This document shows, piece after piece, positions 14,199 to 40,140 of a stretch of DNA of 59,906 bases (position 1 is the stretch's first letter; every line of letters begins with the position of its first letter). The notes under the pieces are model-generated. The model saw only the letters and a list, made by a program, of their open reading frames with translations. It had not been told where the DNA came from and ran no database searches. The translations under genes and the position numbers were made by a program. Source of the stretch: Candidatus Pacearchaeota archaeon (lineage in GTDB: Archaea > Nanobdellota > Nanobdellia > Pacearchaeales > GW2011-AR1); NCBI GenBank assembly GCA_017608305.1, contig JAFCGC010000003.1:1-59906 (forward strand), in the 5' to 3' direction.

Positions 14199-14762
14199 AT
14201 GGTGGCAAAAAATTTAGCATATATCTTAATTGCAATTATTACTGCAATATCTATTGTACTTATTTCATTAGTAGTGATAGAAAAAAGACTGCATCGAAAA
14301 GCTACTAGAAAAAAAGATACAAAAAATAAATATTATATAGAAAAACTTTCAAGAGTAAATCTTAAGGATACAGAAAGAACTCTCAAACAATTTGATAAGC
14401 TCGCAAGAAATTTCTTTAGAGAGGCTTTTAAAACCAAAGCAGGTTTAGAGTATGCTGAATTAAAAGATTATTTTGCAAAAAGACACAACAAAAAAGCTGA
14501 GCAATTTTGTGATATTATGGACAATGTACTCTACTCTGGAAGCAAAGCAACTAAAAAAGATAATCTAAAATTGTTAAATATTTTAGCTGAAATAATAGGA
14601 AGCAATAGAATCATCACTAAAAAAGAAAAAAAAGAACTAGATAAAAAAAGTGTAGTCAAAGAAAAAAAATTAAAACTCTTAAATTTTCTAAGGAATATTA
14701 AGATACCTGGTATTATTAAGAAAAAAAGTAATAACAAAAAGAATAATAGCAAAAATAATTAA
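14199..14762 (+). CDS. N-terminally anchored Lys-rich protein (hypothetical)
   Basis: TM segment then a basic, low-complexity tail. The 3' end overlaps the convergent VWA gene by 75 nt, so its true end is uncertain. Confidence 0.35.
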   Translation: MVAKNLAYILIAIITAISIVLISLVVIEKRLHRKATRKKDTKNKYYIEKLSRVNLKDTERTLKQFDKLARNFFREAFKTKAGLEYAELKDYFAKRHNKKAEQFCDIMDNVLYSGSKATKKDNLKLLNILAEIIGSNRIITKKEKKELDKKSVVKEKKLKLLNFLRNIKIPGIIKKKSNNKKNNSKNN

Positions 14763-15608: not shown

Positions 15609-16505
15609 CTAGATAGTATGCCTCCTTTCTTGTAAAAATAATACTAAAGGTTCTGCAAAGGGCTTATCTGTAGTCAAACCCAAATAGTCTGCTTGAGTTT
15701 TATTAAATATTTGAGCCACAAGATCTTGTTGTTCTTCTACATATTTTTCATATTCTACTTTAGCAACCTTAGGATTAACAACTACTTGTTCATTAGTAGC
15801 AGGATCTTCTAACACTACTTCTCCTTCAACATCAGGAAGAGAAATATCCAAAGGATCTCTAACCTGCACAAGGACAGTCTCAAACATACTAGATAAAAGA
15901 GTCAATCTTTTCTCAGTTTCAGGAGTTACACTCAAAAAATCTGAAACAATAAAGATAGAAGAAATAGATTTACTAAAATATTCCATTGCAAAATCTATGG
16001 CCTGATTTAAATTTGTTTGTCCACCATAATTTACAGGATTGGATAATAAATCTACAAAATAGTGAAAATGTTTTAATCCTGTCTTACAATCAACAAAATT
16101 AGAAATAGCATCACTAAAAAAGAAAAATCCAATCTTATCATTAGAACTTACAATTAAGTGTGAAAGCGCAGCAACAAGTTCAGTCACAAATTCACATTTT
16201 AGTTTGTCTGTAGATCCAAAAACCATATTACTCCCAACATCGATGATAAACATAATTCTCAAATCTCTTTCTTCTTTATACTGTTTAACTAAAAGTTTCT
16301 CAGCTCTCGCACTAGTTTTCCAATCAATATCCGCAGCATCATCATCAGGAGTAAATTTTCTAAATCCCTCAAATTCCAATCCTTTTCCCCTAAAGAGAAT
16401 TCTATAAATCTCTTTTTTTAATCTAAAAGCTTTCATCATGGCTTCTAACTCATTAATTGCTTCAGGAATATCTACATTCAACTTTGATTTTTTAATTTTT
16501 GCCAT
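15609..16505 (-). CDS. DUF58-family protein (MoxR-associated)
   Basis: GKGLEFEGFRKFTPDDDAADIDWKTSAR signature of DUF58. Adjacent to MoxR and VWA genes. Confidence 0.8.
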   Translation of the reverse strand: MAKIKKSKLNVDIPEAINELEAMMKAFRLKKEIYRILFRGKGLEFEGFRKFTPDDDAADIDWKTSARAEKLLVKQYKEERDLRIMFIIDVGSNMVFGSTDKLKCEFVTELVAALSHLIVSSNDKIGFFFFSDAISNFVDCKTGLKHFHYFVDLLSNPVNYGGQTNLNQAIDFAMEYFSKSISSIFIVSDFLSVTPETEKRLTLLSSMFETVLVQVRDPLDISLPDVEGEVVLEDPATNEQVVVNPKVAKVEYEKYVEEQQDLVAQIFNKTQADYLGLTTDKPFAEPLVLFLQERRHTI

Positions 16506-16541
16506 GTATTAACCTCTTTTTTTTAAACCAATCTATAAGAA

Positions 16542-16889
16542 TTATAATAAAGTTTCATTAATATAGTTTTCGACCTGATTTACTATATCATTATAGGATA
16601 ATGCAGAATTCTCCCAGACATTGAATATATTGTAAGAACTAGAAACCATATTTGTAAAACTTTCTTCTCCTGTAACATAATTAAATGCCCATCTTTGATT
16701 ATCTAAAAAAGAAACTTTATCAAACACACCATTACTTTGTGTTCCATTCATGTATCTAATATCAACTTCAAGATCTGTGTAAATAGTAGCAGTTGGAGTT
16801 TCATTATTTATTCCATCTTCTATTGCCTGTCTTCCTAGTGTTTCATTAGCTTCTCCACTTAAAACAACCAAAATACTTGAAGTTTTCAA
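16542..16889 (-). CDS. hypothetical protein
   Basis: 115-aa ORF with a 4-nt overlap with the MoxR gene. Confidence 0.4.
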   Translation of the reverse strand: MKTSSILVVLSGEANETLGRQAIEDGINNETPTATIYTDLEVDIRYMNGTQSNGVFDKVSFLDNQRWAFNYVTGEESFTNMVSSSYNIFNVWENSALSYNDIVNQVENYINETLL

Positions 16890-18103
16890 ATCCCAATAAG
16901 GCCTAGAATCTCGTCGATTATCTTATCAGAATCTATTTTTTCTGCCCTTGCCTTGTAATTCAAAATAATCCTATGCCTCAAAACATAATGTGCTATATCT
17001 TTCACATCTTTAGGGATAACATAATTCCTTCCTTTCATCAAAGCCCAAGCTTTAGCAGCGATAAATAAACCAATACTCGCTCTTGGAGAACCACCCCAAT
17101 CAATATATTGTCCATTCTTAAAATCTTTTTTCCTGGTTTTTTCTACAATCTTAAAAATATAATCTTTAACTTTATCATCAAGATATATATTCTTAGCAAG
17201 ACTCTGCATATGAATAATCTTTTCAGGAGAAAGTACAGCCTTTATATCATAATCTTCAAATTTTTTAAGAGTAACATTAGTATTCATAATTTTTTTCTCT
17301 TCTTCTCCTGATTTAGGGTATCCTATTAAAAGTTTAAACAAAAATCTATCAATCTGTGCTTCAGGAAGTTCATAAACTCCACTTGTCTCAAGAGGATTGT
17401 TATTTGCCATAACAAAAAATGGAAGAGGAAGTTTATGAGTTTCTTTTGCAATTGTTACTTGTTTTTCCTGCATAGCTTCAATCAAAGCAGATTGAGTTTT
17501 CGGAGGACTCCTATTAATTTCATCTGCAACAATAAAATTAGCAAATATTGGCCCTTTAAGAGTTTCAAATCCTTTTTCAGGAGTATAAGTTGTCATTCCA
17601 AGAATATCACTAGGCAATAAATCAACTGTGAACTGAATTCTCTTTGAACTTGACCCAGAGGCCTTTGCCAAAGTCTTTACAATAAGAGTTTTTGCTATAC
17701 CTGGAACCCCCTCTAATAAAACATGTCCATTACAAATCAAAGCACATATAAAAGCTTCAATAACTATTTCTTGACCAATAACTGTCTTAGCCATTTCTAC
17801 CTTTACCTTAGAAATAATATCTGCTATCTCTTTTATCTCATTAGCATCTGGAACATTTCCAAAATCTGATTTAATTATTTTTTTCTCCACTATTTCTGAT
17901 TTTGATTTTTCTAGAAATTTCTCTTTTATTTTAGGAACTCTTTCAATTCCTTCTCGAACAGTCAAGATTTCTTCTATTTCATCAGCAGTATAACCATCTC
18001 CACTAAGAAGATCTATAATCTCTTGTTTAGAATATCCTCTTTCAATTGATTCTTTTACCCATTTCTGAACTTCACCATTTTTTTCCATTTTAATATTAAA
18101 CAC
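16886..18103 (-). CDS. MoxR-like AAA+ ATPase with about 95-aa N-terminal extension
   Basis: Walker A GVPGIAKT, Walker B VADEINR, and a MoxR-type C-terminal lid. Confidence 0.9.
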   Translation of the reverse strand: MFNIKMEKNGEVQKWVKESIERGYSKQEIIDLLSGDGYTADEIEEILTVREGIERVPKIKEKFLEKSKSEIVEKKIIKSDFGNVPDANEIKEIADIISKVKVEMAKTVIGQEIVIEAFICALICNGHVLLEGVPGIAKTLIVKTLAKASGSSSKRIQFTVDLLPSDILGMTTYTPEKGFETLKGPIFANFIVADEINRSPPKTQSALIEAMQEKQVTIAKETHKLPLPFFVMANNNPLETSGVYELPEAQIDRFLFKLLIGYPKSGEEEKKIMNTNVTLKKFEDYDIKAVLSPEKIIHMQSLAKNIYLDDKVKDYIFKIVEKTRKKDFKNGQYIDWGGSPRASIGLFIAAKAWALMKGRNYVIPKDVKDIAHYVLRHRIILNYKARAEKIDSDKIIDEILGLIGI

Positions 18104-18111: not shown

Positions 18112-21100
18112 TTAAATGCTTTCCTTTATTTTTATTATTTTCTCCTTTTTATCAACAATCATTCTACTTTTCAAGGCACTTCTTTTTAATTTTATTCTTC
18201 TATAAGAATAATAAGATATTCCTGTAAAAAAAGCAAAAACTGTTGCTATAGCAAGATACCTATATAATTTATTCTCAACTACTTCTCTTGTCAAACCCCT
18301 TGTTGGTTGCTCTATAGCTTCTCTACAAGCATTAATTGCCTCTTCTGCCTTTTGATTTGCCATCTCAGTATTTCCTTCTCTTGCATATTGTTTAGCCTCC
18401 TCAATAAGCTCTTTTAATTCTAAACACTCTGGATTTTCAACAATAAATTCCTCTATAAATAATAATTTTTCTTGTATTTTATCTCCTTCTTGAATTGTCA
18501 AATAAATTTTTCCCCAATCATGGTATTTTGGACTAGTCACACTAGCATTAATTGTTATTTCAAAGGTTCCAAGATCATCTGTATCTATATCTGCTGTTAA
18601 AGTCACAGCTTCTGAATTTCCAACTCCTAAACTAGAAAAATAAGTTTTATCAAATGAAAGGATAATATCATTCCTAAGTTCACCATCTTTAGCCACACTT
18701 CCTGATAAATTAATTCCAAAAAGACTAATCTTTCCATCATTTTGCAAAGTAATTGGCAATACTATCTGATCTTTTTTAAATGCTGAAACAGGATCAGGCA
18801 TAATTATTTTTAAAGACACTGGTTGAAGAGTTGTTCCTCCACCACCACTTGGAGTAACAGTAACAGTCTCAGGTTCTGTAAACTTAACTAAAAAATCATT
18901 ACTAGTAACACTTGTTAAGATTGAATTGTCTGACGAATTTATATCAGAAGCAGTTATATTTAACATTTCAGTAACAGCAATTATGGCAGATAAAGTCAAA
19001 AGCCAATCAGAAGAAACACTCGAAGTAATATCTGTAGGTGAAGAATTACTTGATATTGTAAAATTAACTGTTTGATTATATTTAGCATCTGTATAATCTA
19101 TATCTGAAAAATATTGAGTCAGATCTATTTCTATATCACTGTTATAAGTTGCTTGTTTGTATCCAATATACCCCCTAAATGCAACAGGAGAATTGTTATG
19201 AGTTATATTTGAATTCCAATTTATAGTATAATTAAAATCAGTTGCATTTGCAAGATCACTAGTAGCAGGATAAATTAATAAACTTAAATTCTCAAACAGA
19301 CCATAAGTCTCGTCAGTAAAATTAGGAGTAAAAGCCCAGGTTAAATTAGTATTATTTCCATAAGAACTCGCATTATACTTGTAAATCTCATTTAAATAAA
19401 ATGCATAAGTTAAATTATCATTTACAGAATGATTTGCTCTAAATATTAAACTAGAAGTTACATTTTCTTGCAGACTAAAATTATAAGTAGGTAAAGGAAA
19501 AGTTATGTTAGGAGTTCCATAAACCAAAACCCAAAAATCCTGAGAATCTATACTTCCATCAGTATCATTAACAGTTATATTTATATTATATTTTCCTGCC
19601 TGCGTATCATTAAAAGTAATATCTAATTCTCCTGAAGTTGTATTAAAAATAGACTCATTATTTCCTATAAAATCAGTTCCACTAAGAAAAGCATAATCAT
19701 AGGTTAAATTTCCAGAACTATCATCTCCATCTTCTGTATCTGAAGCATTAATATTATAATAAAGAGTCCTATTTACTCCAGAAGATTGATTTGTTAAATT
19801 CATTAAAACAGGATTATGGCTTATTTCAATAATAGTAAGATTAAAAGATAAAAACACAGAAGCATTAGAGATATCTGTAACATTTATACTAACATTATAA
19901 CCTCCTATATCTGATTTTCCAGGAGTAAATGAGGCAGTATATCGAGTTCTATTAGCCCCAGGAGTAGGAAAATTACCATCTTTAGTAAAACTAAACAAAC
20001 TTGAATTAGGACCCTCAATAGTCAAATTAACTGTCAAAGTCTCATTATAATAACTCTTTTGACTTGCATTCACTTTCAAATCTTCATCTTGAACCCAAAG
20101 AGTAATAATGGTGTAATTATCTTCTGCAGTAGTTATATTTGAATTAGACTCTACAGTAGCATTAACATTCACACTAAGCGGCGTTTCCATCATGGGTTCT
20201 GTATTTATATTTGAAACATTAAATATAAACAAAGTTGTGTTTTCAAGTCCTAGAGAATCATTAGCAGTAACACTAAATTCCCAATAACCTATATCTAGTT
20301 TCCAAGGAGTAAAATCCACCATCCCACCTGAACTTAAATTAAATCCAGGAAATGCTGTTGATGAAGTAAAAGTGAGAACATCCCCAATATCAGTAACATA
20401 CAAATCCCCTGTTAAATTAATTGGGCCAAATTGATCAGTAGTTGCAAGAGTAGAATTAACAGTTAAATCAAAACTATAATTTGTTTGATTCCAAGTAGGA
20501 AATGTATTTGATGAAATAGTTAAATTAAATATAATTGAATAAAAAGCATTCTCACTGTCATTCACAGATAAGTTAACAGTATAATCTCCCACTTGAGTCT
20601 CATTTGGAGTAAATCTTATCTCAGCTGTTGTTTGGTTTGTGGGCACAGTAACATTCAAAACAGGCATACTCAAAATAGTTACTGTAAAATTATCAATAGT
20701 CAAAGCTTGACTTAAATCAGATTGATTAAACAAAGTTGCATTAAAAGTAATTGTTTCATTATATCCTCCAGAAACATCATTTTTATCTGGGATTAATAAA
20801 TCATTATCATAAACAGACAAACTAATTGTTCTTTCTAAATCCATAGAAGTTTGAACATTAGCCACATCAGTGATTTCAGGAGCATCATTAAGCGAACTAT
20901 TTCTTTCAACATAAACAGGAATTTGAACTGTAATATTTTGTCCATAAGTATCATCAAAAACAGTGAAATTAATTGTCCAATTTCCAATCTCTGTTTTTTG
21001 AGGAGTCACATTTATCAAAATCTCTTTTGTAAAATTATCAGAAGTTGTTGTTGAATTAACAAGAAACCAACTCCTATTTAAAACCCCTCCTCCATAATTC

Positions 21101-22029
21101 CTTAAAAGAGCTATACTAGAAATATTCAGAGCATCTTCTTCGCCTTGGGTAGTTAGATTAATATAACAAAAATCTGCAACATTTTCTGTAAAAACTTTAT
21201 TTTCACAATCAGTTATGTTTGCATCTAAACTTGCAAAAACATTAAATCTAACAGCTACAGAATAGATCGTTGTCTGATTTTGTTCATAAGCTGCAGCATC
21301 ACAATAATTATGAGGGCAAGAATAATTTTCACCAAAGTCCATTACAGAAATATTTGCCCAATAAGTACCAACATCATCTTTTGTAGGGGTAAAATTCATA
21401 GCAGCTGAATCATTTGTAAGATCTGTTAGAGTCATGCCTAAAACAAATAAAGAACAATTCTCTCCATCATTTCTTTGAGACCAAGAAGCATGACTACAAT
21501 TATCTATAAAAAAACTTATATTAAAAGTTAAATTAAGATGAGATTCTTGATCTGTTGCATTTAAATAATCATAAAAACTTTGATTCTGAGTCAAATTAAA
21601 GACACTAGACATATTAACAAATTCAGGAGCATCATTTGTTGCATTAACCTCAAAGAAAAAAGTCTCAATATCTCCTGAACCAGTATCATTTTGCACACTC
21701 ATAGTAATATTAAATCTTCCTGTTTCATTATCTTTAGAAGAAGTAAAATTCATAAGTCCTAACACATCATCTGTCAAATTAATCCAATAAATATCACTTG
21801 CAGTATAAGTATCATCTTCAGACCAATTTATAGACAAAACAGTAAAAAGATGTGGAGGCTCAGAAGTTGATAAGTTTGCTGTAAAATTATGTTGATAATC
21901 AGTATCTTCAACCAAAAAATAAGGTCCTCTTGATCCAGTATCAAATTGAGGCTTAGCTAAAACAAATCCAAGTAAAAAGAGAATTGCAAAGATCCCAAGA
22001 TAAATTAAAATATTTTTTCTAGACTTCAT
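18112..22029 (-). CDS. large (1305 aa) surface protein with cadherin/Ig-like repeats and a C-terminal TM anchor
   Basis: Signal peptide. Repeat boundaries of NDAPEF / NDAPEI / NTEPM / SHNPV type. Dozens of N-x-S/T sequons. C-terminal TM followed by basic residues. Confidence 0.8.
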   Translation of the reverse strand: MKSRKNILIYLGIFAILFLLGFVLAKPQFDTGSRGPYFLVEDTDYQHNFTANLSTSEPPHLFTVLSINWSEDDTYTASDIYWINLTDDVLGLMNFTSSKDNETGRFNITMSVQNDTGSGDIETFFFEVNATNDAPEFVNMSSVFNLTQNQSFYDYLNATDQESHLNLTFNISFFIDNCSHASWSQRNDGENCSLFVLGMTLTDLTNDSAAMNFTPTKDDVGTYWANISVMDFGENYSCPHNYCDAAAYEQNQTTIYSVAVRFNVFASLDANITDCENKVFTENVADFCYINLTTQGEEDALNISSIALLRNYGGGVLNRSWFLVNSTTTSDNFTKEILINVTPQKTEIGNWTINFTVFDDTYGQNITVQIPVYVERNSSLNDAPEITDVANVQTSMDLERTISLSVYDNDLLIPDKNDVSGGYNETITFNATLFNQSDLSQALTIDNFTVTILSMPVLNVTVPTNQTTAEIRFTPNETQVGDYTVNLSVNDSENAFYSIIFNLTISSNTFPTWNQTNYSFDLTVNSTLATTDQFGPINLTGDLYVTDIGDVLTFTSSTAFPGFNLSSGGMVDFTPWKLDIGYWEFSVTANDSLGLENTTLFIFNVSNINTEPMMETPLSVNVNATVESNSNITTAEDNYTIITLWVQDEDLKVNASQKSYYNETLTVNLTIEGPNSSLFSFTKDGNFPTPGANRTRYTASFTPGKSDIGGYNVSINVTDISNASVFLSFNLTIIEISHNPVLMNLTNQSSGVNRTLYYNINASDTEDGDDSSGNLTYDYAFLSGTDFIGNNESIFNTTSGELDITFNDTQAGKYNINITVNDTDGSIDSQDFWVLVYGTPNITFPLPTYNFSLQENVTSSLIFRANHSVNDNLTYAFYLNEIYKYNASSYGNNTNLTWAFTPNFTDETYGLFENLSLLIYPATSDLANATDFNYTINWNSNITHNNSPVAFRGYIGYKQATYNSDIEIDLTQYFSDIDYTDAKYNQTVNFTISSNSSPTDITSSVSSDWLLTLSAIIAVTEMLNITASDINSSDNSILTSVTSNDFLVKFTEPETVTVTPSGGGGTTLQPVSLKIIMPDPVSAFKKDQIVLPITLQNDGKISLFGINLSGSVAKDGELRNDIILSFDKTYFSSLGVGNSEAVTLTADIDTDDLGTFEITINASVTSPKYHDWGKIYLTIQEGDKIQEKLLFIEEFIVENPECLELKELIEEAKQYAREGNTEMANQKAEEAINACREAIEQPTRGLTREVVENKLYRYLAIATVFAFFTGISYYSYRRIKLKRSALKSRMIVDKKEKIIKIKESI

Positions 22030-22205
22030 TTTAAAACCCCTTTTTTTAATTTTTTTAAAAAATCATAAACTGCAAGATCAATAAATTGTTTTTTATTAAC
22101 AAATTTCAACCTATTCTCTTCTTCTTGAATAAATTGATCTATTTTAGTTAACAAACTAGAATCAATCTTTACAACAGAATCTTTATTATTATTTCCCCTT
22201 TTCAT
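22026..22205 (-). CDS. small ribbon-helix-helix-like protein (not in ORF track, 59 aa)
   Basis: MKRGNNNKDSVVKIDSSLLTKIDQFIQEEENRLKFVNKKQFIDLAVYDFLKKLKKGVLK. The beta-strand plus two-helix pattern is as in CopG/RHH. Its stop overlaps the ATG of the 1305-aa gene (ATGA). Confidence 0.45.
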   Translation of the reverse strand: MKRGNNNKDSVVKIDSSLLTKIDQFIQEEENRLKFVNKKQFIDLAVYDFLKKLKKGVLK

Positions 22206-24454: not shown

Positions 24455-24889
24455 TTAATCAATATATCTTTTAAATTCAATACTTACTATTCCATTATAA
24501 TTTCCAAAAGGTTCATTTTTAAACATAACTGTATCTATAGAGATAGATTTTATTTCTCCTGGATCTAATTTAATCTCTTTTTCATACAAAAGAAAATCAG
24601 CTATGTCCCCTTTGACATTAATAATCGCCAGAACCGGAAAACTATAATTATTTACTAGATCTAAATCTCTGGTAGAATAAGAACCATAAGGAACTCTTCC
24701 AAAACCAAGAATACCTTGAGTAAGGTTAAAACCAGCACGCTCCCCAATAATTAAGGTTGTTGGAATCTCTTTTTTATCTAAAACAACATTTCCAGTCATA
24801 TTTACTCTAAGAGTAAGTAAAAATACCATAAGAGCAACTACAAAAAGGCAAATAACCAAAACATAAATTTTTTTATTTTGCATCTTCAA
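24455..24889 (-). CDS. signal-anchored small protein (hypothetical)
   Basis: 144 aa with an N-terminal TM segment. Confidence 0.5.
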   Translation of the reverse strand: MKMQNKKIYVLVICLFVVALMVFLLTLRVNMTGNVVLDKKEIPTTLIIGERAGFNLTQGILGFGRVPYGSYSTRDLDLVNNYSFPVLAIINVKGDIADFLLYEKEIKLDPGEIKSISIDTVMFKNEPFGNYNGIVSIEFKRYID

Positions 24890-24898
24890 ATTTAAAAA

Positions 24899-26041: not shown

Positions 26042-26095
26042 AATAAAGAGAAAATAAAATAGTTTTTATATTTTACTAAAAAATTCACAGAACAA

Positions 26096-26815: not shown

Positions 26816-27009
26816 TAACCTGTTCCTCCAGCAGTGCTTTTTTCAATAGTAAATCCAACACTTGCACTTTGTGTTGGTTGGGATGGTTGTTGTGTCAATG
26901 CTCTTGCAAAGTTATCACTAAAATCTGTTATATTACTAACAATTGCTAATGATGTTACAGATAACACAATTGTAACAAGCAACAACACCACAATAAGTTT
27001 TTCGTTCAT
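26815..27009 (-). CDS. small signal-anchored protein (hypothetical)
   Basis: 64 aa with an N-terminal TM. Its stop abuts the next ATG. Confidence 0.4.
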   Translation of the reverse strand: MNEKLIVVLLLVTIVLSVTSLAIVSNITDFSDNFARALTQQPSQPTQSASVGFTIEKSTAGGTG

Positions 27010-28480: not shown

Positions 28481-28968
28481 TTCCTACCTCCCTCATATTT
28501 TGAATCATCCTTTTCAACCTCAACATATTCTCCTGCTTCTAAATCAAATTCCTCTTCCTCATTTTTAGTAACTTCTAAATCTACATTTCCTGAATTTTCT
28601 AATTCATAATTTTCTTTTCTTTCTCTCAAATCTAATCCCACAGAATCTTGAATTGAAAAGATCTTCACTTCACTCTCTCTTCCAAATCTTCCTCTAACTT
28701 TCCAATAATAATCTCCAGGAGGAAGAATCATGTCAGAACCTTCTTCTAGTGTGATAAAATTTTCAAAATTCTCATTTACAGAGAGTATTACTTTTTCTCC
28801 ATTTTCAATTTCAAAAACAAAATTCGGATTTTCAATAGTCATTCCATGTAAAGGATAAATCTGACTAGGCATAGTTGAAAATAATAAATAAATTAAAATT
28901 CCAACTACAAACACAGTTTCAACTATTAAAATTCTTTTTTCTATTTTTTTCCAATTTCTTTTTTTCAT
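28477..28968 (-). CDS. signal-anchored protein (hypothetical)
   Basis: 163 aa with an N-terminal TM. Its 3' end overlaps the downstream gene's start (ATGATGA). Confidence 0.5.
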   Translation of the reverse strand: MKKRNWKKIEKRILIVETVFVVGILIYLLFSTMPSQIYPLHGMTIENPNFVFEIENGEKVILSVNENFENFITLEEGSDMILPPGDYYWKVRGRFGRESEVKIFSIQDSVGLDLRERKENYELENSGNVDLEVTKNEEEEFDLEAGEYVEVEKDDSKYEGGRK

Positions 28969-29007
28969 TTTCTTTTCCTATTCTGGTTTTGTCTATGCGA
29001 GTAACTT

Positions 29008-32000: not shown

Positions 32001-35000
32001 TTAATTGCCAAGTCCAATCAGGATTTAATGCTTTTGCTAAAACACCAAAATTATCTCCTGTTTCATGCGCCATGCTTGTTTTAATCCAAGATTCAAATGT
32101 AATCTCATCAGTAATATCTAAACTACTATCACTGCCACAATTGATATAATCATCTCCATCAAATTTATATGCCCCCCCAACTTTTTCACTTATCTCCCAA
32201 ACAGGATTTCCATAAATTGTGGCATTATTTTGGTAAGTGGAATAATCTCTAATAATATCAAAAGTTAAACTTGTTTCTTCTGTATCAAAAGGCATATTTA
32301 AAACAGCAATTGATTCACCTCCAAGTCTCCAGTCAGTGATGGTTATGGGTGTGCTATCTGCATCAATTATTTCATAATAAACAGATAAATTTTCCAAACT
32401 AGAATTATGTCCTAAAGAAGAATTTAAAACCACATTTGAAATTACAGGATAAGTATTTACATCAACTGTTCTTATCTCTGTCTGATTTAAATTTCCAGCT
32501 AAGTCCTGAACATAAGCAACATATTCATATTCTCCGGAATCCAAACTTGTAAAATTCCTATAAAGCCTATTAAGTCCTGCATTATACGAAGCATCAATTT
32601 CTTCTTCACTCAAGGCCCTATTCCAAACTCTTAATTCATCTATTGTTCCATTAAAAAAATGTGTTGATCCTTCTTGAGTAGCACCAATTGTAAAATTATT
32701 CTCCTTATCAGGATCAAAAAAAGGACCTGATTGAATAAAGGAATCTGTGCTTTCTAAAACCCCATTAAAATAAAGTTTATATGAAGTTCCTGCATCCATT
32801 ACCACTAAAACATGTGTCCAAACACCAATTGGTACAGAAGAGAAAACAAAAGTATCTCCATTCTCTACATAAGACCTAATCTCATCTCCAACCATATAAA
32901 GCAAAAAATCCCCATCTTCAATCCCCCCCCCATCATAAACATCAAAAATATAACACTCTGAACAAGTACCTTTAGGTTTTATCCAAGCACTTACAGTAAA
33001 ATTTTCAAAATCAGTTAAACTGTCTGATTTCTCAACAAGAACATAATCATCAATACCATCAAAATTTAATCCAGGTCCAAACTTTCCTGCAGAAGTCCAG
33101 ACAGGAGGGGAGTCTCCATCTTGATTGCTTGGATTAAAGTCATAAAGAGTTCCATTATTACTCCAACTAGAACTATCATAAGCAGTTGTTCCTGTAAATT
33201 CATTAAATCTCCACCAACCAACTAAACTTTTATTCCAATCCATAAAAGAGGTCACATCATTGGCATCAGAAACACTTACATTAACATAAACACTATTTCC
33301 CCTAACAAAACTATCATCAGTAAGAGTGGGGGGGACAAATTCAATTAAAGGAGTTATAGTATCTATGCTTATTTTTCTTGTTTCTGTTTGATTAAAGTTC
33401 TCAGATAAATCCTTAAGATAAGCAAAATATTCATAAGTTCCATCACTTAAACTAGTTTTGTTAACATACAAATTCCAAACACTAGAAGCACTTTGTACAA
33501 GACTTGCTCCTGCGTTTTCACCACTCCAATTAATATATGTTGCAGATTCATTTAAATTATCTTCTAAAATAGAAACATTAACATAAATTGAAGTGTAATT
33601 TGTATAAGTATTATTATCAAAAGTTGGAAAAACAAAATTAATTTCAGGGGGAACAACATCTAATAAAATATTAAGAAAAGTACTCTCAGTTAAATTCAAA
33701 GAAACAAAAGTAGTTGAAGGATCTTTTTTAGCTTGAATAGTATAATTAGTTGCAAAAGTTTTTGCGATTTTTGTTTGAGAATATTCCATTAAAATTTCTC
33801 TATCTATTTGACCAAGTGAATTAGTATAACTTGTGAATATTAAATCATTTGTTTTATTCCATACAGAAACTTCCACATTCTCAAGAGAATTTCCTAATTC
33901 ATCTGAAACATTTACCCTAAAATACCATTTTACATCCACTGAACCTAAATTACTCCAACCTCCATCAAAAAACAAAATTTTATTTTCATCAAAAGTTGTA
34001 TTAATTAAATTCAATACACTAGTTTGAGTTGTAGAAACTGTTCGAATATCATAAGAAGTGCTATCTTGAATTAATGAATTAAATACTAAAAGCTTAGCAG
34101 AACTCTGAACTTCAATACCAACCTCATTATCCTTAATTTTACTAGAAGAAATATTGTTATTAGAAGAAGAAACTTGGATTCCTGCAATATTATTCTCAAA
34201 AATAGAAAGATTAGTTAAATTATTATTTTCTGCTGAATCTTTCAAATCTAATCCAACACTAGAATAAGAAAAAATATTATCAAAAATTAAATTATTATCG
34301 CCTGAAATACGCAAACCTAAACCATTATTAGTAAAATTATTATTAGAAACATTGCAATTATCTCCCTCCACTGTTAATGCAATCCCCCCATTATTTGTAA
34401 AATAATTTCCAGAAATCAAAAAATTATTTCCAAAAAAAGTAGGTTGAGCATTATTTGAAAAAACATTGCCAATTATTTTTACATCATCTGCATAAATTTT
34501 AAGCCCAATTTTGAATGAAGTACGATTTCCTGAACAATAACTTAAACTAGATTTATTCATAAAAAAATCAGCTCCATTTTCAACAATAAAAATAAAAGTA
34601 GGATCAGAACCCCCACCATTAGTAATATTGCTCTTAGCTTTGATTGTCATATTTCCTGTGCTTGTAACATTAATTCCAACACCCCCATCATTAGTACCAT
34701 TCATTCTCAAAGTTGAATTTTCTAAAATAAAATCACCTTCAATTGTTAAATTTCCATTTTGCCAAATTGTATTTTTTGAATTTTTAATTGTGAAATTCCC
34801 CTTATTCTCAACTAAAGTGAAATCTTCAACATTTAAGGAAATTGAATCTATTGTCAAATCCCCATCTGAAGTAACGTTTAATGAATTCACCTTTAAATCA
34901 TCATAAGTTTCATCACAAACTAAATCAGTTGTTATTACTAAATCTACATTAGGAAAAGTTGGTTCGCAAGTATTATATTGAATTATAGATTCCCAATCTC

Positions 35001-38000
35001 CATTTAAACACTCATAATCATCATTATATCTTTCTCCTTCTGCATAACAAGCATCTGGACCTGCACAATCTGTTATAGAATCACAACAAGCTTCATACTC
35101 AATCTCCATTGTAGAACTTACAAAGTTCTCCCCAGAATCATCGCCACAACAATTTCCAGTTGTTCCTGTTTCAAAAAACAAAGATTCACCATAACAACTT
35201 CCTTGATTACAAGATACTCCATTTGCAATTCCCTCTAAACCACAATCACATGCATTAGAAGAAGTATCAGGATCTATTTCATAACTTCCAGCTTCACATG
35301 CTTTAAAAGTTCCAATTCCAGATTCACAAAAATTATCACTTGCTCCATCATCTCCACAACAAGGACCAGGAGATAAAGCTCCAGCAATCCAAGTTTGGGC
35401 AATACAAGTTCCAGCAGTCTTCTCACAATATACTTGAGCCAAATCTCTATCTCTATTCTGATAAACTCTCTTTGCACAAGAACCTCCTATTCCATCTGGG
35501 CAACCAAATAAAGTGCAAGAGGCGTCTCTAAATATGGCTTGCACGCTAGTACAAGTATCATCACTATTAGTATCATGCGATGATACATAAGTTCCATAAT
35601 AAGAATAATATCCAACATAATAATCATCAACAGAAGAACCTGAACAATAATCTCTTTTATATGTTAGTTCACAACTACCCCCTAAACAAGAATCAGAATA
35701 ATCAATTAAATATCCTGCTGTATCCCAATTATCTTTTCCATCAGAATCCCAAGATGACAAAGTTGCACAGTCTGTTGAACTCCATCCATCAATTGTATTG
35801 TAAACAGATTCTTGACTGCAACTAAAATTGTCATTATTATAACAAGTAAAATAACCTATATCTACCCCTAATCCATCTTGCTCAGCACACTCATCACTTT
35901 CATCTGTACATGCCCAAGTATCATCTGGTTTAGTATTACAGTCACTACTTAAACACTCTGTATCTCCTTCACAAGAATAAGTATTTTTAGTTAAACAAAA
36001 ACCTAAACCATCACATGCTTGACTACCCAAACAAGTTAAAACACCTTCAATATCTTCTGTACCACTAGGAGCTATAAAAACACAATCAAAAGAAGTTGCA
36101 TCAGTACAAGTTTCGCAAATACCACAATTTCTTTCTCCAGAAGTAAACCATCCACAAGCTTTATTTCCATTACAATTTCCTGTTCCACAATCTTCTTGAG
36201 CACATTCAATATCAGGATCTGTACCAGAAGAAACAGCAGAACAAGTTCCATCATTTCCCCCTGTTTTTAAAGCTAAACATGCTTCACATTCTCCACCACA
36301 AGAAGTATCGCAACAAACCCCATCTTGAGAAGGACAATTTCCAGAATCACATTCAGCTCCAGAACTACAACTACAACCATTTACTTTAGCAAGACCCCAA
36401 TAAGTAGGCCCATCAATATTACAATATCTTCCACTCTCAGGTGCGGTTCCACAATGTTCAATAGATGTAGCAAGACCACTATCATCACTAACAGTTCCAC
36501 ATTCATATAAATTTCCACTATAACACAAAATTCTTTCATCTGTTTCTCCAGAATTTAAAATATTTCCATTATAACAACAACCTTCAAAAAGACCTGAAGC
36601 TTCAAAATCTTCTCCAGGATTATTACCACAACAATAATCTCCTTGAGTTGCAGTACTAAGCCATTCACCTAAATTAGTACAAGAAGGTTCTTCACAAGCA
36701 GATTCATCAGTATTTCTATTTTCACTAGACCAAGATCCAGAACTACAAGAACTTACAGTATCTTCAGTACACGATGTTTCAGTACCAGAAGAATAACAAA
36801 CACCTGTATTAACACAATCATTAGCATTATCACAACAAGCTATATCACCTAAATCTAAATTATTTTCTACAATATACTCATTATCATCATCACCACAACA
36901 TTCATCCTTTTCAAAAACAACATCATATTCCCCAACCTCTGCTTCTCCACTTTTTATCCACCCATCTAGATAACCACAATAAACTTCGCAAACAGTACTT
37001 CCTCCTGCAGCAGAATCACAATCAAGCCAAAGACCTGAGGCGCAAGCAAGATTCTCCCCAGAGATAACAATAGGAGACCCAACAACAACACCATTACAAA
37101 AACTCTCATAAATACAATCATTTTCATTATCACAACAAGCATTATCTGAAATTGATGCAGAAAAATTAGGTAAATCATTATCTGGATAAGTATAAGTAGG
37201 ATCTAATTTTCTATATAAAGCATTTTCTCCAGCATCATCTCCACAACACTCTGTATCACAATCATAAGGGTCTGTTCCAGAAGTAGCAGAACAATGTTCA
37301 CCACCAAGGTTATAACCAAAATCATTACTACAATCAGTACAAGTTAAAGAATCATTATCACAATCAATCCAATAACCTCCTTTAGAGGTAGAAAGATTTG
37401 CACAATACATTACACCATCTCCTAAAACAGTTGCATCCCCAAAATCATAACAAGTTCCATTAGAAAGAACACAATCCCTAGGGTTATCCGAAGTATTACA
37501 ACAAGCATAAATAGTTTCTCCACTCGTTGGACAAGCTCCCTCTGTTGAAGATTCGCAAGGATTAGAAGCACCTCCCAGATTAACCCTATTAAAATAAGCC
37601 ACATATTCTCCTGCATCATCTCCACAACAACTTGGATAAGTCCCAAATTCATATGAAAAAGAAGAAGTATTATAAAAAGGGCTCACATATTCATACAACT
37701 CACAACAAATAGGTTCATAAAGAGAACTCTTTGCTTTACAAGCAAAAGATTCACAAAAATTAGGAGTAATATCAGGATCACCAATAGCAAGATAACATTC
37801 ATCATTCCCCCCCAGCAAACTATAATTACTTTCATTACCAACACTTTGATTAGCACTAACATTAATCAAATCCATTGTTATGTTATTAATAACAGCATTG
37901 TAAACATTAATTCTAGAAATATTAATATCTTCAAAACTAATTGGAAGTCCTGTTGTTTTAAATCTTATTTTTAATTCATCCACAGATAGAGTTTCATTTT

Positions 38001-40140
38001 CTAAAACAAGTGCGCTCGCACCTGCAACCATTGGCGCACTCATTGATGTTCCTGATTTAATTTCTGAAATTCCATTAATTCCTAAAACTTCTATATTTTT
38101 TCCAGGAGCAAATAAATCAGTAATTAAATTTACATTAGCAAAATCTGCAATATTATCTTGTTTGTCTGTAGCTGAAACCCTAACTGCTTGAGTTGCACAA
38201 CTAGGAGTCTTAATATTAGAAGAACCATCATTTCCTGTTGCAGCAACTACAAAAATTCCATTATCCACAGCATTATTAACAAATTCAGCAACAATATTTG
38301 TATCACAATAACCATCATAACTTCCAGCACCAATACTAAAACTAATTATATTTGCATTGTTGTTAATACACCATTGTAATCCTTCTAAAACATCACTTTC
38401 ATAACCAATTCCATTTGAATCAATTACTTTAGCAACTAAAATCTCAGCCCCAGGCGCTATTTTATTTATAACAGAAGCAACTTCTGTCCCATGACCATTA
38501 TCATCACTAGCATCATTATCTTCATTAACAAAGTCATAACCTGAAACATAAGACACAACACTAGAATCAACACCAGTATCAACTACACAAATACTCTTGC
38601 CCTGCCCTGTTAAACCAAATTCATCCCTAGTTTTAAAAGAACTAATAATATTTTCAGAATCTTCTAATAATACTAAAACTTCTTGATCAGGAATTATCTC
38701 TATTTCAAGGTCTTTTAAAAGTTCTAATTTATCTACATCAAGTTCAAGAACTTCAAGATTACTCAAACCTACAAGATCTTTACCAATAACAGTATCTCCT
38801 TTAATAATAACCCTAACTAATCTATCATCAATTAATAATTTTGAAATAACTTCTTGGTCTAATTTAACTTTATTAAATTTAATCACTTCATTTATTCTAT
38901 CTAACTTACTAATAATTGTAAAATTTGTATCATTAATCACAATAGTTTCATTAGGCAAAAGCTCAGACTCTTCAATTTCTCCAAAACTAATTATTTCACT
39001 CAAAGAAGCAATATTAAATTCTTCAAATATTAAATCTACTTTAAATTGTCCATCTTCTCCAATCAATCCTAAGCCATCTAAATCAAAACTCAACTCAATT
39101 TTTTCATCTCCTAAATATTCTTCACCAAATCCTTGCTCTGATTCAGAATAAGATGTTGAAACAATAACATTATTCTCCTCGATCACTAATTTAACCTCTT
39201 GAGAAGAACTAATAATTTCTGCTGTTTCTCCTTCTAAAAGACCATAAACAAAAGGATTTTCTCCTGTAATCACTTCTTCAATTATTAATTCAGGGGGAGA
39301 TGCCAATACAGAATCTTCAACAACAGGTTCACTTGACTCTTCAGAGTCTTCACTTGGTTCTTCTGTTATTTCTTCTTCAACAACTTCTTCAGGCTCATCA
39401 AGAACTGGTTCCTCAGAGTCTACTGGTTCTTCAATAGGAATTTCGGGTTCAGGAACAGGTTCAATTGGAATTTCTGGTTCTTGAGTTATATTTTCTGGGA
39501 TGTCTGTTTCATTTATAGGGATTTCTGGTTCATCAGAGCCTGTTATATTTTCAGGCGGAATCTCTGTTTCATTTTCAGGTTCTTGTGTTTGATTTCCTAA
39601 AATATCTGGCTCTTCAACTGTTTGTGTAATCATCAAAACAAAATCTACTTCTGGATAAATAGTTTTTTCACCAATAATTCCAAACCCTTCTCCAATACCA
39701 GATATTTCTATAGAACCAATATAAAACTCACCGTAATTTGTTGGGCCAGAAATTAAATTTTCTAAGAAAAATTCTTGTTCATCACCAACATTGTCAATTA
39801 AAACTCTTGTTGATTTAGGAATTAATTCGCCTTTTTGCAAATTTATTTTTACACTACCAGTGATGGGGTCACCTAAAACAGGAAGTTCATCAATTAAAAG
39901 CACAAATCTTTCTTCAGGAGCTAGATAAATTGTTTGTTGTAAATAATTCATGAACACAATTCCTGAAAAAAAGATTAATCCGAGTAGTGTAAAAGTTAAA
40001 ATAAAATTTAAAACAGAAGTTTTTTTCTCTTTATGTTTTCCTAAATATTTAGAAACAACTTTTCCATCTCTTTTATGACTATGATAAATATAAGGACCAT
40101 ATACTTTCCCTCCTCTTTTAATATATCTTTTATAAGCCAT
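29008..40140 (-). CDS. giant (3710 aa) multidomain surface protein: basic N-terminus, TM, acidic PE-rich linker, subtilisin-like S8 domain, Cys-rich CCGDD modules, beta-helix, 2x LamG, FG-GAP/VCBS-type repeats, Ig/Fn3-like C-terminus
   Basis: One uninterrupted ORF. S8 triad contexts VVDTGVD, HGTEVAS, GTSMSAP. PbH1-like NN(F/I)xxN repeats. LamG hallmarks WWRFNE...DELRVWNRALSEEEI and DGVRIFNRSLSEEQI. GDLDGDGLDD / DLNNDGKDD / GDLDNDGEME repeats. Confidence 0.9.
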   Translation of the reverse strand: MAYKRYIKRGGKVYGPYIYHSHKRDGKVVSKYLGKHKEKKTSVLNFILTFTLLGLIFFSGIVFMNYLQQTIYLAPEERFVLLIDELPVLGDPITGSVKINLQKGELIPKSTRVLIDNVGDEQEFFLENLISGPTNYGEFYIGSIEISGIGEGFGIIGEKTIYPEVDFVLMITQTVEEPDILGNQTQEPENETEIPPENITGSDEPEIPINETDIPENITQEPEIPIEPVPEPEIPIEEPVDSEEPVLDEPEEVVEEEITEEPSEDSEESSEPVVEDSVLASPPELIIEEVITGENPFVYGLLEGETAEIISSSQEVKLVIEENNVIVSTSYSESEQGFGEEYLGDEKIELSFDLDGLGLIGEDGQFKVDLIFEEFNIASLSEIISFGEIEESELLPNETIVINDTNFTIISKLDRINEVIKFNKVKLDQEVISKLLIDDRLVRVIIKGDTVIGKDLVGLSNLEVLELDVDKLELLKDLEIEIIPDQEVLVLLEDSENIISSFKTRDEFGLTGQGKSICVVDTGVDSSVVSYVSGYDFVNEDNDASDDNGHGTEVASVINKIAPGAEILVAKVIDSNGIGYESDVLEGLQWCINNNANIISFSIGAGSYDGYCDTNIVAEFVNNAVDNGIFVVAATGNDGSSNIKTPSCATQAVRVSATDKQDNIADFANVNLITDLFAPGKNIEVLGINGISEIKSGTSMSAPMVAGASALVLENETLSVDELKIRFKTTGLPISFEDINISRINVYNAVINNITMDLINVSANQSVGNESNYSLLGGNDECYLAIGDPDITPNFCESFACKAKSSLYEPICCELYEYVSPFYNTSSFSYEFGTYPSCCGDDAGEYVAYFNRVNLGGASNPCESSTEGACPTSGETIYACCNTSDNPRDCVLSNGTCYDFGDATVLGDGVMYCANLSTSKGGYWIDCDNDSLTCTDCSNDFGYNLGGEHCSATSGTDPYDCDTECCGDDAGENALYRKLDPTYTYPDNDLPNFSASISDNACCDNENDCIYESFCNGVVVGSPIVISGENLACASGLWLDCDSAAGGSTVCEVYCGYLDGWIKSGEAEVGEYDVVFEKDECCGDDDNEYIVENNLDLGDIACCDNANDCVNTGVCYSSGTETSCTEDTVSSCSSGSWSSENRNTDESACEEPSCTNLGEWLSTATQGDYCCGNNPGEDFEASGLFEGCCYNGNILNSGETDERILCYSGNLYECGTVSDDSGLATSIEHCGTAPESGRYCNIDGPTYWGLAKVNGCSCSSGAECDSGNCPSQDGVCCDTSCGGECEACLALKTGGNDGTCSAVSSGTDPDIECAQEDCGTGNCNGNKACGWFTSGERNCGICETCTDATSFDCVFIAPSGTEDIEGVLTCLGSQACDGLGFCLTKNTYSCEGDTECLSSDCNTKPDDTWACTDESDECAEQDGLGVDIGYFTCYNNDNFSCSQESVYNTIDGWSSTDCATLSSWDSDGKDNWDTAGYLIDYSDSCLGGSCELTYKRDYCSGSSVDDYYVGYYSYYGTYVSSHDTNSDDTCTSVQAIFRDASCTLFGCPDGIGGSCAKRVYQNRDRDLAQVYCEKTAGTCIAQTWIAGALSPGPCCGDDGASDNFCESGIGTFKACEAGSYEIDPDTSSNACDCGLEGIANGVSCNQGSCYGESLFFETGTTGNCCGDDSGENFVSSTMEIEYEACCDSITDCAGPDACYAEGERYNDDYECLNGDWESIIQYNTCEPTFPNVDLVITTDLVCDETYDDLKVNSLNVTSDGDLTIDSISLNVEDFTLVENKGNFTIKNSKNTIWQNGNLTIEGDFILENSTLRMNGTNDGGVGINVTSTGNMTIKAKSNITNGGGSDPTFIFIVENGADFFMNKSSLSYCSGNRTSFKIGLKIYADDVKIIGNVFSNNAQPTFFGNNFLISGNYFTNNGGIALTVEGDNCNVSNNNFTNNGLGLRISGDNNLIFDNIFSYSSVGLDLKDSAENNNLTNLSIFENNIAGIQVSSSNNNISSSKIKDNEVGIEVQSSAKLLVFNSLIQDSTSYDIRTVSTTQTSVLNLINTTFDENKILFFDGGWSNLGSVDVKWYFRVNVSDELGNSLENVEVSVWNKTNDLIFTSYTNSLGQIDREILMEYSQTKIAKTFATNYTIQAKKDPSTTFVSLNLTESTFLNILLDVVPPEINFVFPTFDNNTYTNYTSIYVNVSILEDNLNESATYINWSGENAGASLVQSASSVWNLYVNKTSLSDGTYEYFAYLKDLSENFNQTETRKISIDTITPLIEFVPPTLTDDSFVRGNSVYVNVSVSDANDVTSFMDWNKSLVGWWRFNEFTGTTAYDSSSWSNNGTLYDFNPSNQDGDSPPVWTSAGKFGPGLNFDGIDDYVLVEKSDSLTDFENFTVSAWIKPKGTCSECYIFDVYDGGGIEDGDFLLYMVGDEIRSYVENGDTFVFSSVPIGVWTHVLVVMDAGTSYKLYFNGVLESTDSFIQSGPFFDPDKENNFTIGATQEGSTHFFNGTIDELRVWNRALSEEEIDASYNAGLNRLYRNFTSLDSGEYEYVAYVQDLAGNLNQTEIRTVDVNTYPVISNVVLNSSLGHNSSLENLSVYYEIIDADSTPITITDWRLGGESIAVLNMPFDTEETSLTFDIIRDYSTYQNNATIYGNPVWEISEKVGGAYKFDGDDYINCGSDSSLDITDEITFESWIKTSMAHETGDNFGVLAKALNPDWTWQLRFGGLSEGGPSDRLGIQFNQDNVIPGVWVNLDQDLTTGQWYHVVGVYNGTSALIYLNGDLKDTALLNQIQSSNSPLLIAQDGWNNYFSGTIDGVRIFNRSLSEEQIKILYDSGMADKHFENLSSFETKLGDNWSVALTPNDALGDGETVLSNTLEIINSAPEYQSINLLPSLPYTKDHLQCGFNVTDFDSPLLNVEVKWYSNGSNFLNQTISDYTQSTLYFSNLSYTYTHYDDDFYCRINANDGVESTGWYQSQTRKIRNYSTSLSITDEDNQNSKTQVLFTANYSETDSNVDIGDLGIFLWDTGNIGKVRTIRAIDLSKTGRKDGLIIGINEAHNQFFNALGVNVFNSPNTGSGQSIFVGDLDSDNYEGEFLEGTASISVINNLGQNIWQEGTFSELAISSIGDLDGDGLDDDFVIVQGSGDKNILAYTGENNIWIQDWSYNCVGITGIDKIVVEDLNNDGKDDVVFSSEGNTSVTALNSSGEYLWKNKGKVPLAVGDLDNDGEMEILSGNSQYLFVYNFTGGLKDSLHWDFEPGDNPTEIIISDIYNNGDKYVVTSFFSAKIFVYDSSLNYIWNVSKGFSSIDLLGIDIDDDTEMEFIAMNNNSQSHMQAFIIESNGGIVLIYDSLKSYPSGTFGPRPSFGKHPELDAGDFNYDGVADIGFVSYVSNNPNEGYLDVIQDSRCKIDFNDSVSGRLSWNLTSNLWEYNRSFEKGGLYKYNITCHKGAYEEKISSGEVFVLLNSLPTVTLVSPANDSSNIDRTPTFVWDGVDADGEADIQEYELEISCSDSVCSPDDYKLISIITGSPVDESYTLPDPDFLQYLFDNTYYYTWRVRARDSVGWGDWSEKWNLKIQSEVSISITDPPSNPDPTIDFGTMQPDETKATDPTPPNPFTLENDGNCIANVDIKATQLWNTRSSASSDYRYKVQEKDTGSFTSGTTSWANIPIDPTEETFLVEFKWNAAEDEAYVDLELTVPGATEGAGSRSSTLTFTASLNE
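30000..30960 (-). other. FG-GAP/VCBS-like Asp-rich Ca-binding repeats (approximate bounds)
   Basis: Repeated GDxDxDGxxD loops. Confidence 0.6.
31660..33230 (-). other. two LamG/concanavalin-like lectin domains (approximate bounds)
   Basis: See the motifs listed for the giant ORF. Confidence 0.7.
34960..37810 (-). other. about 950-aa cysteine-rich region with repeated CCGDD...ACCDxxxDC modules (approximate bounds)
   Basis: Six CCG(D/N)(D/N) motifs and four ACC(D/N)xxxDC motifs at recurring spacing. Confidence 0.7.
37900..38620 (-). other. subtilisin-like (S8) peptidase domain inside the giant ORF (approximate bounds)
   Basis: Asp in DTGVD near 38585, His codon 38491-38493, Ser codon 38044-38046. 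Confidence 0.75.

Follow-up and report, generated by a model that had tools for sequence, protein, structure and literature searches.

Little is understood of how the uncultured DPANN archaea take hold of other cells and exploit them, and a long run of predicted surface-protein genes in a Candidatus Pacearchaeota genome raises the question of whether such genes form one dedicated machinery, and with which of them an accompanying MoxR ATPase is associated. The run occupies positions 14688-40140 of a 59,906-nt stretch of contig JAFCGC010000003.1 (GenBank assembly GCA_017608305.1), which was analysed as a whole and is called the window below. An initial annotation of this stretch had described the run as a single super-operon in which surface proteins, among them a giant, are coupled to a MoxR-DUF58-VWA module (VWA, von Willebrand factor A). 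We found that the block consists of two conserved modules, and is not one indivisible operon, and that the MoxR module travels with two cadherin-like proteins instead of the giant. We give slightly more credence than doubt to a reading in which the two modules, a display platform and MoxR-linked cadherin-like arms, would form a DPANN surface system that adheres to or engages another cell.

24455-40140, minus strand: core module, with the giant passenger, s163, A463, s64, s239, B380 and s144
14199-24417, minus strand except for the convergent plus-strand cv187: extension module, with C702, r59, D1305, MoxR, DUF58, VWA and cv187

The core is thus made up of the passenger, four small N-anchored proteins and two paralogous stalk proteins of three beta-sandwiches each. 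All 14 minus-strand open reading frames (ORFs) that had been listed for the block are present at their given coordinates, with junctions from a 4-nt overlap up to a 103-nt gap, and N- and/or C-terminal hydrophobic anchors were recognised in the ten products that had been taken as secreted or membrane-bound. The figure of about 8,350 aa of surface proteins needs correction, since 8,353 aa is reached only by adding up all 14 products, of which the membrane or secreted ones account for 7,476 aa. The run of minus-strand genes continues well past both the block and its 14 ORFs, so that co-directionality alone means little, and it is conserved synteny that provides the non-chance signal. AT-rich TATA-like boxes are found in most gaps of this 30% GC genome, including the internal gaps of the block, and are not informative.

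Synteny was compared across 160 related loci (80 core-based and 80 MoxR-based, designated by L numbers below), on which the proteins of the window were mapped by tblastn. A search with B380 gave 48 relatives and a pattern scan of species-representative genomes gave 149 matching stretches, from which the best 80 loci were kept; a metagenome scan with the AAA part of MoxR gave 80 loci at 47-87% identity. The denominators of the linkage counts are loci with enough flanking sequence. Homologues of the block proteins come nearly all from metagenome-assembled genomes labelled Pacearchaeota, Woesearchaeota, Nanoarchaeota, Aenigmatarchaeota or simply 'archaeon'. In about 80 genome loci the genes of the core keep one order: passenger, s163, A463, a ~64-aa ORF, s239, B380, s144. 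Of the 45 loci for which 6 kb or more of downstream sequence was available, at least 21 have MoxR no more than 10 kb from the core, in the order C702, r59, D1305, MoxR, DUF58, VWA. This count is a lower bound because L011, which was scored negative, and L104 are one 53,888-nt contig, on which some 18 kb separate B380 from MoxR. Among the 21, the extension is inverted as a block in L007, L053, L057 and L074. Other loci run into housekeeping genes, such as tRNA synthetases in L001 and ribosomal proteins in L003. Counted from the MoxR orthologues, the neighbourhood is as follows.

D1305-type gene directly upstream: 52/57
C702-type gene nearby: 28/30
Core genes within 10 kb upstream: 18/24
DUF58 nearby, downstream: 57/61
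VWA gene nearby: 48/54
Convergent cv187 nearby: 29/36 (loci with at least 4 kb downstream)

Two of the five loci without an upstream D1305 gene are rearranged and the other three carry the most distant MoxRs, so that the linkage of this MoxR clade to cadherin-like proteins is near-obligate; the linkage of the extension to the core is strong, but not absolute. Had the MoxR module been unlinked from surface genes in relatives, the idea of a coupled system would have been lost; linkage was what we observed. What does not stand is the coupling of MoxR to the giant, since the evident partners of MoxR, as far as gene neighbourhoods can indicate, are the cadherin-like proteins C702 and D1305. Likewise, the super-operon survives as a dedicated, evolutionarily conserved cell-surface gene set, but not as a single unit, given that in roughly half of the loci no MoxR gene lies within 10 kb of the core and that the extension inverts separately. 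The components of the extension are the following, together with one ORF (s115) that lies among them.

22309..24417, minus strand: C702, a cadherin/Ig-like protein rich in sequons, which also has a Gly linker, a Cys-rich domain next to the membrane and a C-terminal transmembrane (TM) anchor
22026..22205, minus strand: r59, a conserved 59-aa ribbon-helix-helix (RHH)-like protein with a strand-helix-helix pattern
18112..22029, minus strand: D1305, a sequon-rich protein encoded directly upstream of MoxR, in which cadherin-like/Ig repeats stand in tandem, with a helical segment close to the membrane and a C-terminal anchor
16886..18103, minus strand: MoxR, an AAA+ ATPase (AAA_3 and AAA_lid_2) with a lineage-specific N-terminal helical extension of ~95 aa
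16542..16889, minus strand: s115, a 115-aa ORF in the gap between MoxR and DUF58, not a family-wide member of the cluster
15609..16505, minus strand: DUF58 protein, a soluble VWA-like adaptor (Pfam 1.4e-41) with a degenerate metal ion-dependent adhesion site (MIDAS; DVGSN)
14688..15608, minus strand: BatA-like VWA membrane protein, arranged as TM1-TM2-VWA-TM3
14199-14762, plus strand: cv187, a convergent 187-aa single-TM protein with a Lys-rich cytoplasmic domain, whose gene shares its last 75 nt with that of VWA

D1305 had been described as saturated with N-x-S/T sequons, and indeed it has 94 against 26.6 expected; C702 has 31 against 8.6 expected, and across orthologues the enrichment persists at about 2.9x. 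In orthologue counts, whose members are not phylogenetically independent, sequons are enriched 1.6-2.9x in most ectodomain families (D1305 2.9x, C702 2.8x, s144 2.5x, giant 2.2x and s239 2.2x), which is consistent with extracellular, glycosylated ectodomains, and we infer heavy N-glycosylation of C702 and D1305. The two proteins share a repeat (2.8e-8). Their 'cadherin/Ig-like' label gains support from orthologues, which match Big_9, He_PIG, PKD and Cadherin, but not from the window proteins themselves; consensus motifs such as NATNDAPxF and ATDxDGDxLTF fit cadherin-like repeats. We also considered D1305 as a BatD-like protein and rejected this, no such match being present in D1305 or in 21 D1305 orthologues. 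The small r59 gene overlaps the start of the D1305 gene, as had been noted, by 4 nt. The gene recurs in 31 loci, each time flanked by C702 and D1305, with a mean column identity of 57% and a conserved pattern (SVVKID-...EEFI...-KKQFIDLAV.EFLKK) that fits strand-helix-helix, and its product, which has no Pfam, NCBIfam or PDB match, is probably a regulator of C702 and D1305. RHH regulators (CopG/MetJ/Arc) form dimers and have two helices after an N-terminal beta-strand.

The block ends in MoxR, DUF58 and VWA genes, as annotated, with Pfam matches to AAA_3, DUF58 and VWA. In MoxR the match is strong (AAA_3 6.9e-56, 188 bits with a cutoff of 27; AAA_lid_2 2.6e-21) and the Walker A (GVPGIAKT) and Walker B (DEINR) motifs are intact. 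The N-terminal extension reported for it is coding, yet it is kept only in the closest relatives: residues 1-95 ('ERGYSKQEIIDLL..GYTADEIEEIL') are conserved only in L005, L018, L019, L022 and L027, and give only weak UBA, RecX-HTH and PF0610-like matches. The ORF that follows, s115, aligns at 64% identity with the final 107 aa of a surface protein of 649 aa in L104, and other loci have no orthologue of it in this position; for these reasons it is probably a fragment of a larger surface-protein gene. The same gap is occupied in L088, L104, L110, L112 and L113 by an unrelated family of Cys-rich N-anchored ORFs of ~117-125 aa.

The VWA protein scores 59 bits for its VWA domain and 21.6 bits for the BatA N-terminal domain, below the 25.9 cutoff, and its MIDAS is intact (D95/S97/S99, T167, D193). 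The positive-inside rule gives a TM1-in-TM2-out topology, in which the VWA domain is predicted to face outward. This predicted topology matches that of Borrelia BB0173, a protein of the same architecture whose VWA domain was experimentally mapped to the periplasm (PMC5700661). The convergent cv187 gene, which was outside the initial list, is a 15th conserved member of the block; its DUF4381 match (E 0.0044, 17.8 bits) is below the 27.2 cutoff, and DUF4381 is the commonest weak match in the family (8/27 members).

The core module contains the following genes.

29008..40140, minus strand: giant passenger of 3710 aa, with Pfam domains, a subtilase triad and a conserved C-terminal unit
28477..28968, minus strand: s163, a small N-anchored protein whose ectodomain resembles the C-terminal unit of the giant (Fn3-like 'YYWKV' part)
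27089..28480, minus strand: A463, a beta-sandwich stalk protein with a C-terminal TM anchor, paralogue of B380
26815..27009, minus strand: s64, a 64-aa N-anchored mini-protein, conserved in position and poorly in sequence
26096..26815, minus strand: s239, an N-anchored, Cys-containing beta-sandwich protein homologous to the terminal domain of the giant
24899..26041, minus strand: B380, the marker of the stalk family, with a signal peptide, three tandem beta-sandwiches, a C-terminal TM helix and a Lys-rich tail
24455..24889, minus strand: s144, an N-anchored protein with a single ASH/PapD-like beta-sandwich, found in 60 loci

Read from its N terminus, the giant carries a cytoplasmic 'GPYxY' motif and a TM helix. 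An acidic linker, the subtilase and a Cys-rich region come next, followed by a region resembling a beta-helix, by Ig-like and two Laminin_G_3 domains and by an FG-GAP region, and the protein ends in a conserved unit of ~260 aa (residues ~3450-3710). Only residues 1-39 are cytoplasmic. The Pfam matches are to Peptidase_S8 (3.5e-32), two Laminin_G_3 (1.2e-52), Big_13 and, marginally, FG-GAP. The subtilase is active-looking, with an intact triad of D521 (VVDTG), H550 (HGTE) and S699 (GTSMSAP) and a match to savinase at 2.7e-30. Across loci, only the N-anchor and the last ~260 aa of the passenger are conserved: the C-terminal unit is kept in 46 of the 48 loci with giant-like matches and the remainder is variable, the laminin-G (LamG) region being common among those 48 and the subtilase rare (2/48). 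The shortest complete passenger orthologue has 351 aa and consists of the anchor and the C-terminal unit, and the longest has 2,408 aa, so that the size seen in the window is not conserved and gigantism is not a trait of the cluster. The diversity of the heads was taken from the ORFs at the loci, because a homology search queried with the C-terminal unit gave no match. Comparison by hhalign shows homology of the unit to s239 (Prob 98.7%, E 2.9e-16, 142 columns) and probably also to s163 (Prob 79%, E 1.6e-5), a protein whose position is conserved in 39 loci.

The N-terminal motif of the giant, M[VA][YH]K[KR]YI..GK.[YF]GPY.Y.S.R..GK....Y[LI]G followed by a TM helix (residues 1-68, positions 39937-40140), is not restricted to it. 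A GPYxY-type motif also occurs in L009, L010, L015, L023, L040, L041, L054, L061, L075, L092, L102-L104, L115, L117, L120, L144, L151, L153 and L154, and stands at the head of several different large surface proteins in the lineage, among which are D1305-like paralogues and second giants of the subtilase/LamG kind. The motif might serve as a tag for sorting or anchoring, and the sole Pfam hint for it is a weak match to DUF6788 (E 0.21). In the close relatives L092, L094, L102, L103, L104 and L109 a second giant gene lies downstream of the cv187 homologue; the second giants share the N-terminal motif, and their subtilase region is 42-53% identical to residues ~230-780 of the giant of the window, which suggests that heads are shuffled between paralogous giants.

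The two proteins annotated as paralogous and anchored, A463 and B380, match each other by BLASTP at 2e-25. The stalk family to which they belong is uniform in length (~380 aa) and large, with 3,847 clusters at 50% identity for E<=1e-3, 2,652 for E<=1e-10 and 1,930 for E<=1e-30; it has no Pfam model. The AlphaFold2 model of B380 (pLDDT 91.5, the predicted confidence of the model) shows three beta-sandwiches in tandem between a signal helix and a C-terminal TM helix. Foldseek returned generic Ig-like matches for it (hydin ASH, macroglobulin MG, integrin legs and a Haloferax S-layer chain), with low TM-scores. Three beta-sandwiches with a C-terminal anchor resemble S-layer anchors, and the block could be a structural cell envelope, that is, an S-layer-type lattice with A463 and B380 as SlaB-like stalks and the giant, D1305 and C702 as canopy glycoproteins. 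The near-ubiquity and collinearity of the core across the lineage, the Haloferax chain among the Foldseek matches and the heavy sequon enrichment, which is typical of archaeal S-layer glycoproteins, would all fit. We nevertheless regard this explanation as unlikely, since a passenger that varies from 351 to 3710 aa and carries shuffled lectin, protease or beta-helix heads is typical of adhesins and enzymes, not of lattice proteins, the Foldseek matches are to generic Ig-like folds, and the extension is missing in cis from many genomes.

Another possibility starts from the domain shared by s239 and the C terminus of the giant and from the adjacent beta-sandwich proteins, which have C-terminal TM anchors. 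The cluster might build an extracellular complex of enzymes and lectins that scavenges nutrients, is similar to Csc/WxL systems or to a mini-cellulosome, and is held by WxLIP-like anchored proteins. Scattered Pfam matches among 30 members of the stalk family (WxLIP_HBD in 3/30, best 1.2e-5; WxLIP_PGBD in 1/30, 0.009; CARDB in 6/30), faint WxLIP_HBD matches among A463 relatives and the intact subtilase and LamG lectin domains of the giant point in this direction. The window's own stalk proteins have no WxLIP match, and those in the family are few and lie within a generic E-set background; no WxL domain was detected in 46 s239 members, the subtilase is present in just two of the 48 loci, and the MoxR/cadherin-like module would be left unexplained, so that we attach only a small chance to this account.

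The small proteins of the core also recall fibre subunits. s239 has several copies in L009, L033, L043, L050 and L065, and its sharing of a domain with the giant mirrors the adhesin/subunit logic of pili; s239-type subunits might then polymerise in a TasA-like manner by donor-strand exchange, with the giant as tip adhesin and PapD-like stalks as chaperone or base. The top Foldseek matches of the s239 model are the TasA-like TLP-1a (E 0.011) and the TasA fibre (E 0.021), and s144 and B380 have ASH/PapD-like folds, the s144 family profile matching FAP65/Hydin ASH domains at E 5e-5. However, a model with a pLDDT of 55 makes those matches unreliable, s239 has no Pfam or PDB sequence match, and hhalign against a TasA sequence gave Prob 0.2%. 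Profile searches of the PDB with the s239, s163, B380 and r59 families produced nothing useful. The s239 N terminus has ~20 hydrophobic residues without an obvious cleavage site, and the long hydrophobic N-termini of the core small proteins look like permanent anchors; moreover, there is no SipW-type peptidase in the block. We have put the TasA-like fibre aside as a weak lead and consider it very improbable. Archaeal type IV pilins were rejected as well, since the class III signal peptide motif, in which a short charged N terminus and a G/A cleavage site precede a hydrophobic helix, is absent from the N-termini of s163, s64, s239 and s144 and no type IV pilus ATPase (PilB) or platform (PilC) gene is present in the window. 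The position of s64 holds ORFs of 62-71 aa in L001, L003 and L004, with tblastn matches in L005, L085 and L108.

The least credible alternative, that a set of adhesin genes merely adjoins an unrelated Bat-like MoxR cluster which serves substrates of its own, would account for the core loci without a nearby extension, for the inversion of the extension as a unit and for the TATA-like boxes in internal gaps, but 18 of the 24 MoxR-orthologue loci have core genes no more than 10 kb upstream, even where MoxR identity is 58-87%, L104, which is among the six loci that do not, has its core on the same contig just past the 10-kb flank, adjacency outlasts inversion, and by our own, uncomputed estimate the linkage is far above chance for a single-copy gene in a ~1-Mb genome.

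We favour the two-module surface system, for which we envisage the following mechanism. The core would be a display platform, in which the membrane-anchored passenger carries a variable head. The ~260-aa C-terminal unit of the giant may dock on the membrane platform through like-with-like beta-sandwich contacts, the platform being built from its small paralogue s239, probably s163, s64, the ASH-like s144 and the stalks A463 and B380. In the extension, cytoplasmic MoxR and its DUF58 adaptor would act on membrane partners, namely VWA and the DUF4381-like cv187 as well as the C702 and D1305 tails, and so assemble or switch the two cadherin-like proteins, with which the outward MIDAS site of the VWA protein could make a metal-bridged contact. 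Together, the modules would mediate adhesion to another cell's surface and its proteolytic or lectin engagement, and host attachment is a plausible outcome.

Several points weigh against this proposal. About 24 of the 45 core loci have no extension within 10 kb, so that the core does not need MoxR in cis. The docking of the C-terminal unit is suggested by paralogy and gene order alone, and the structure model of s239, on the platform side, is poor. The coupling step is speculative, as cytoplasmic MoxR and DUF58 cannot directly touch an outward VWA domain or the ectodomains. Sequons are depleted in A463 (0.54x) and VWA (0.48x) and enriched in MoxR (1.7x), values that make the sequon ratio an ambiguous guide to topology, and we dropped it for that purpose. 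Finally, the initial annotation treated MoxR-DUF58-VWA triads as established insertion modules, which is an overstatement, the function of Bat-type triads being unresolved even in bacteria (PMC3557215, PMC5700661).

In our view, the value of the cluster is that it offers a concrete and widely conserved candidate for how DPANN archaea contact other cells. It supplies a marker family (~1,900 sequence clusters, no Pfam model) and a candidate docking domain common to the head protein and its small neighbours. The function of this MoxR class has been obscure since the Bat operon was described, and the near-obligate coupling of MoxR-DUF58-VWA to two specific glycoproteins names candidate substrates for it. 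The cluster also gives precise targets for metatranscriptomics, proteomics, cryo-electron tomography and multimer modelling.

The surroundings of the block in the window, which has a GC content of ~30%, include L7Ae, S28e, L24e and Kae1 genes just upstream and gyrase genes downstream. Two plus-strand tRNA genes at 51269-51389 (121 nt) and 51932-52056 (125 nt) were detected by Rfam and missed by ARAGORN in bacterial mode, and introns are therefore presumed in both. These tRNA genes, the L7Ae, S28e, L24e and Kae1 flank and the labels of the relatives identify the host as a DPANN archaeon, of the Pacearchaeota/Woesearchaeota kind. On the plus strand at 52231-57537 there is a co-directional run that starts with an Asp/Glu racemase and continues with three RimK/ATP-grasp-type ligases, plus ORFs at 55829-56677 and 56674-57537; its product may be a peptide or polymer containing D-amino acids. 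Elsewhere the window encodes a Fic-domain protein (4552-5457), an MvdD-like pre-ATP-grasp protein (5739-6698) and an Elp3-like radical-SAM/GNAT protein (58042-59559).

As the initial annotation supposed, the gene combination appears to be undescribed: we found no published description, in a search that left most subscription journals uncovered, so that a prior description is possible. The cluster is real and conserved, and it newly combines parts of familiar kinds, a Bat-type MoxR module with giant DPANN adhesins, and includes several families that have no Pfam model. The extension is closest to the Bat (Bacteroides aerotolerance)-type clusters (Borrelia bb0170-bb0176, Leptospira bat), with which it shares an AAA_3-type MoxR, DUF58, a three-TM BatA-like VWA protein with intact MIDAS and outward VWA domain, a single-TM protein whose DUF4381 likeness is weak in cv187, and the association with large beta-sandwich membrane proteins. 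It differs from them in being archaeal, in having only one VWA membrane protein and the DUF4381-like gene on the opposite strand, and in being joined to an adhesin core, to an RHH-like gene and to two giant cadherin-like proteins rich in sequons. No BatB, TPR (BatC), BatD or SH3 (BatE) Pfam match was found in the 14 products or in 21 D1305 orthologues.

The passenger resembles the SPEARE proteins of Nanohaloarchaeota, which are also very large DPANN surface proteins with a serine protease, laminin-G and other adhesion domains, are proposed to act in host interaction, and are defined by a conserved cytoplasmic type III restriction-endonuclease region (PMC6642349). Membership of the giant in this group was rejected, as it has no nuclease or helicase domain and only 39 aa in the cytoplasm; its conserved part is instead the C-terminal unit, with paralogues encoded next door.

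The Csc/WxL clusters of Lactobacillales encode WxL proteins and a DUF916/DUF3324 WxL-interacting protein. There, as in the window, small and very large proteins share a C-terminal domain and lie beside beta-sandwich proteins with a C-terminal TM anchor, and a few stalk-family members give the weak WxLIP_HBD or WxLIP_PGBD matches mentioned above. In contrast, the present cluster is archaeal, its stalk is duplicated and it has no peptidoglycan or LPXTG partner. We rejected homology, since no WxL match was found in the 46 s239 members (E<=0.1) or in the giant, and the logic of the cluster is analogous.

A further parallel is the PFNA cluster of Bifidobacterium (pkb2-fn3-aaa_atp-duf58-tgm), in which a MoxR-type ATPase and DUF58 are also found beside a surface protein with Fn3/Ig-like repeats, implicated in host communication (PMC8430577). 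PFNA, in turn, has a Ser/Thr kinase and a transglutaminase, and is without a BatA-like VWA protein, a giant passenger or stalk paralogues.

Integrins, finally, are a conceptual analogue. The elements of the window are spread over separate proteins, the FG-GAP matches are marginal, there are no talin/kindlin-type partners, and an AAA+ ATPase as stand-in for cytoplasmic control is a hypothesis only. The two share FG-GAP, Ig-like legs, Cys-rich stalk modules, a MIDAS-containing VWA domain on the outer face and short cytoplasmic tails, a likeness that suggests metal-dependent adhesion controllable from inside the cell. In its boldest form, in which we place little confidence, the proposal would be a DPANN-wide adhesion machine, with a docking platform for C-terminal units that carry interchangeable heads, be they lectins, proteases or others, and with cadherin-like arms set by the MoxR motor through the outward MIDAS/VWA protein to seize and release host cells; if true, archaea would have an equivalent of integrin inside-out signalling that is powered by ATP.

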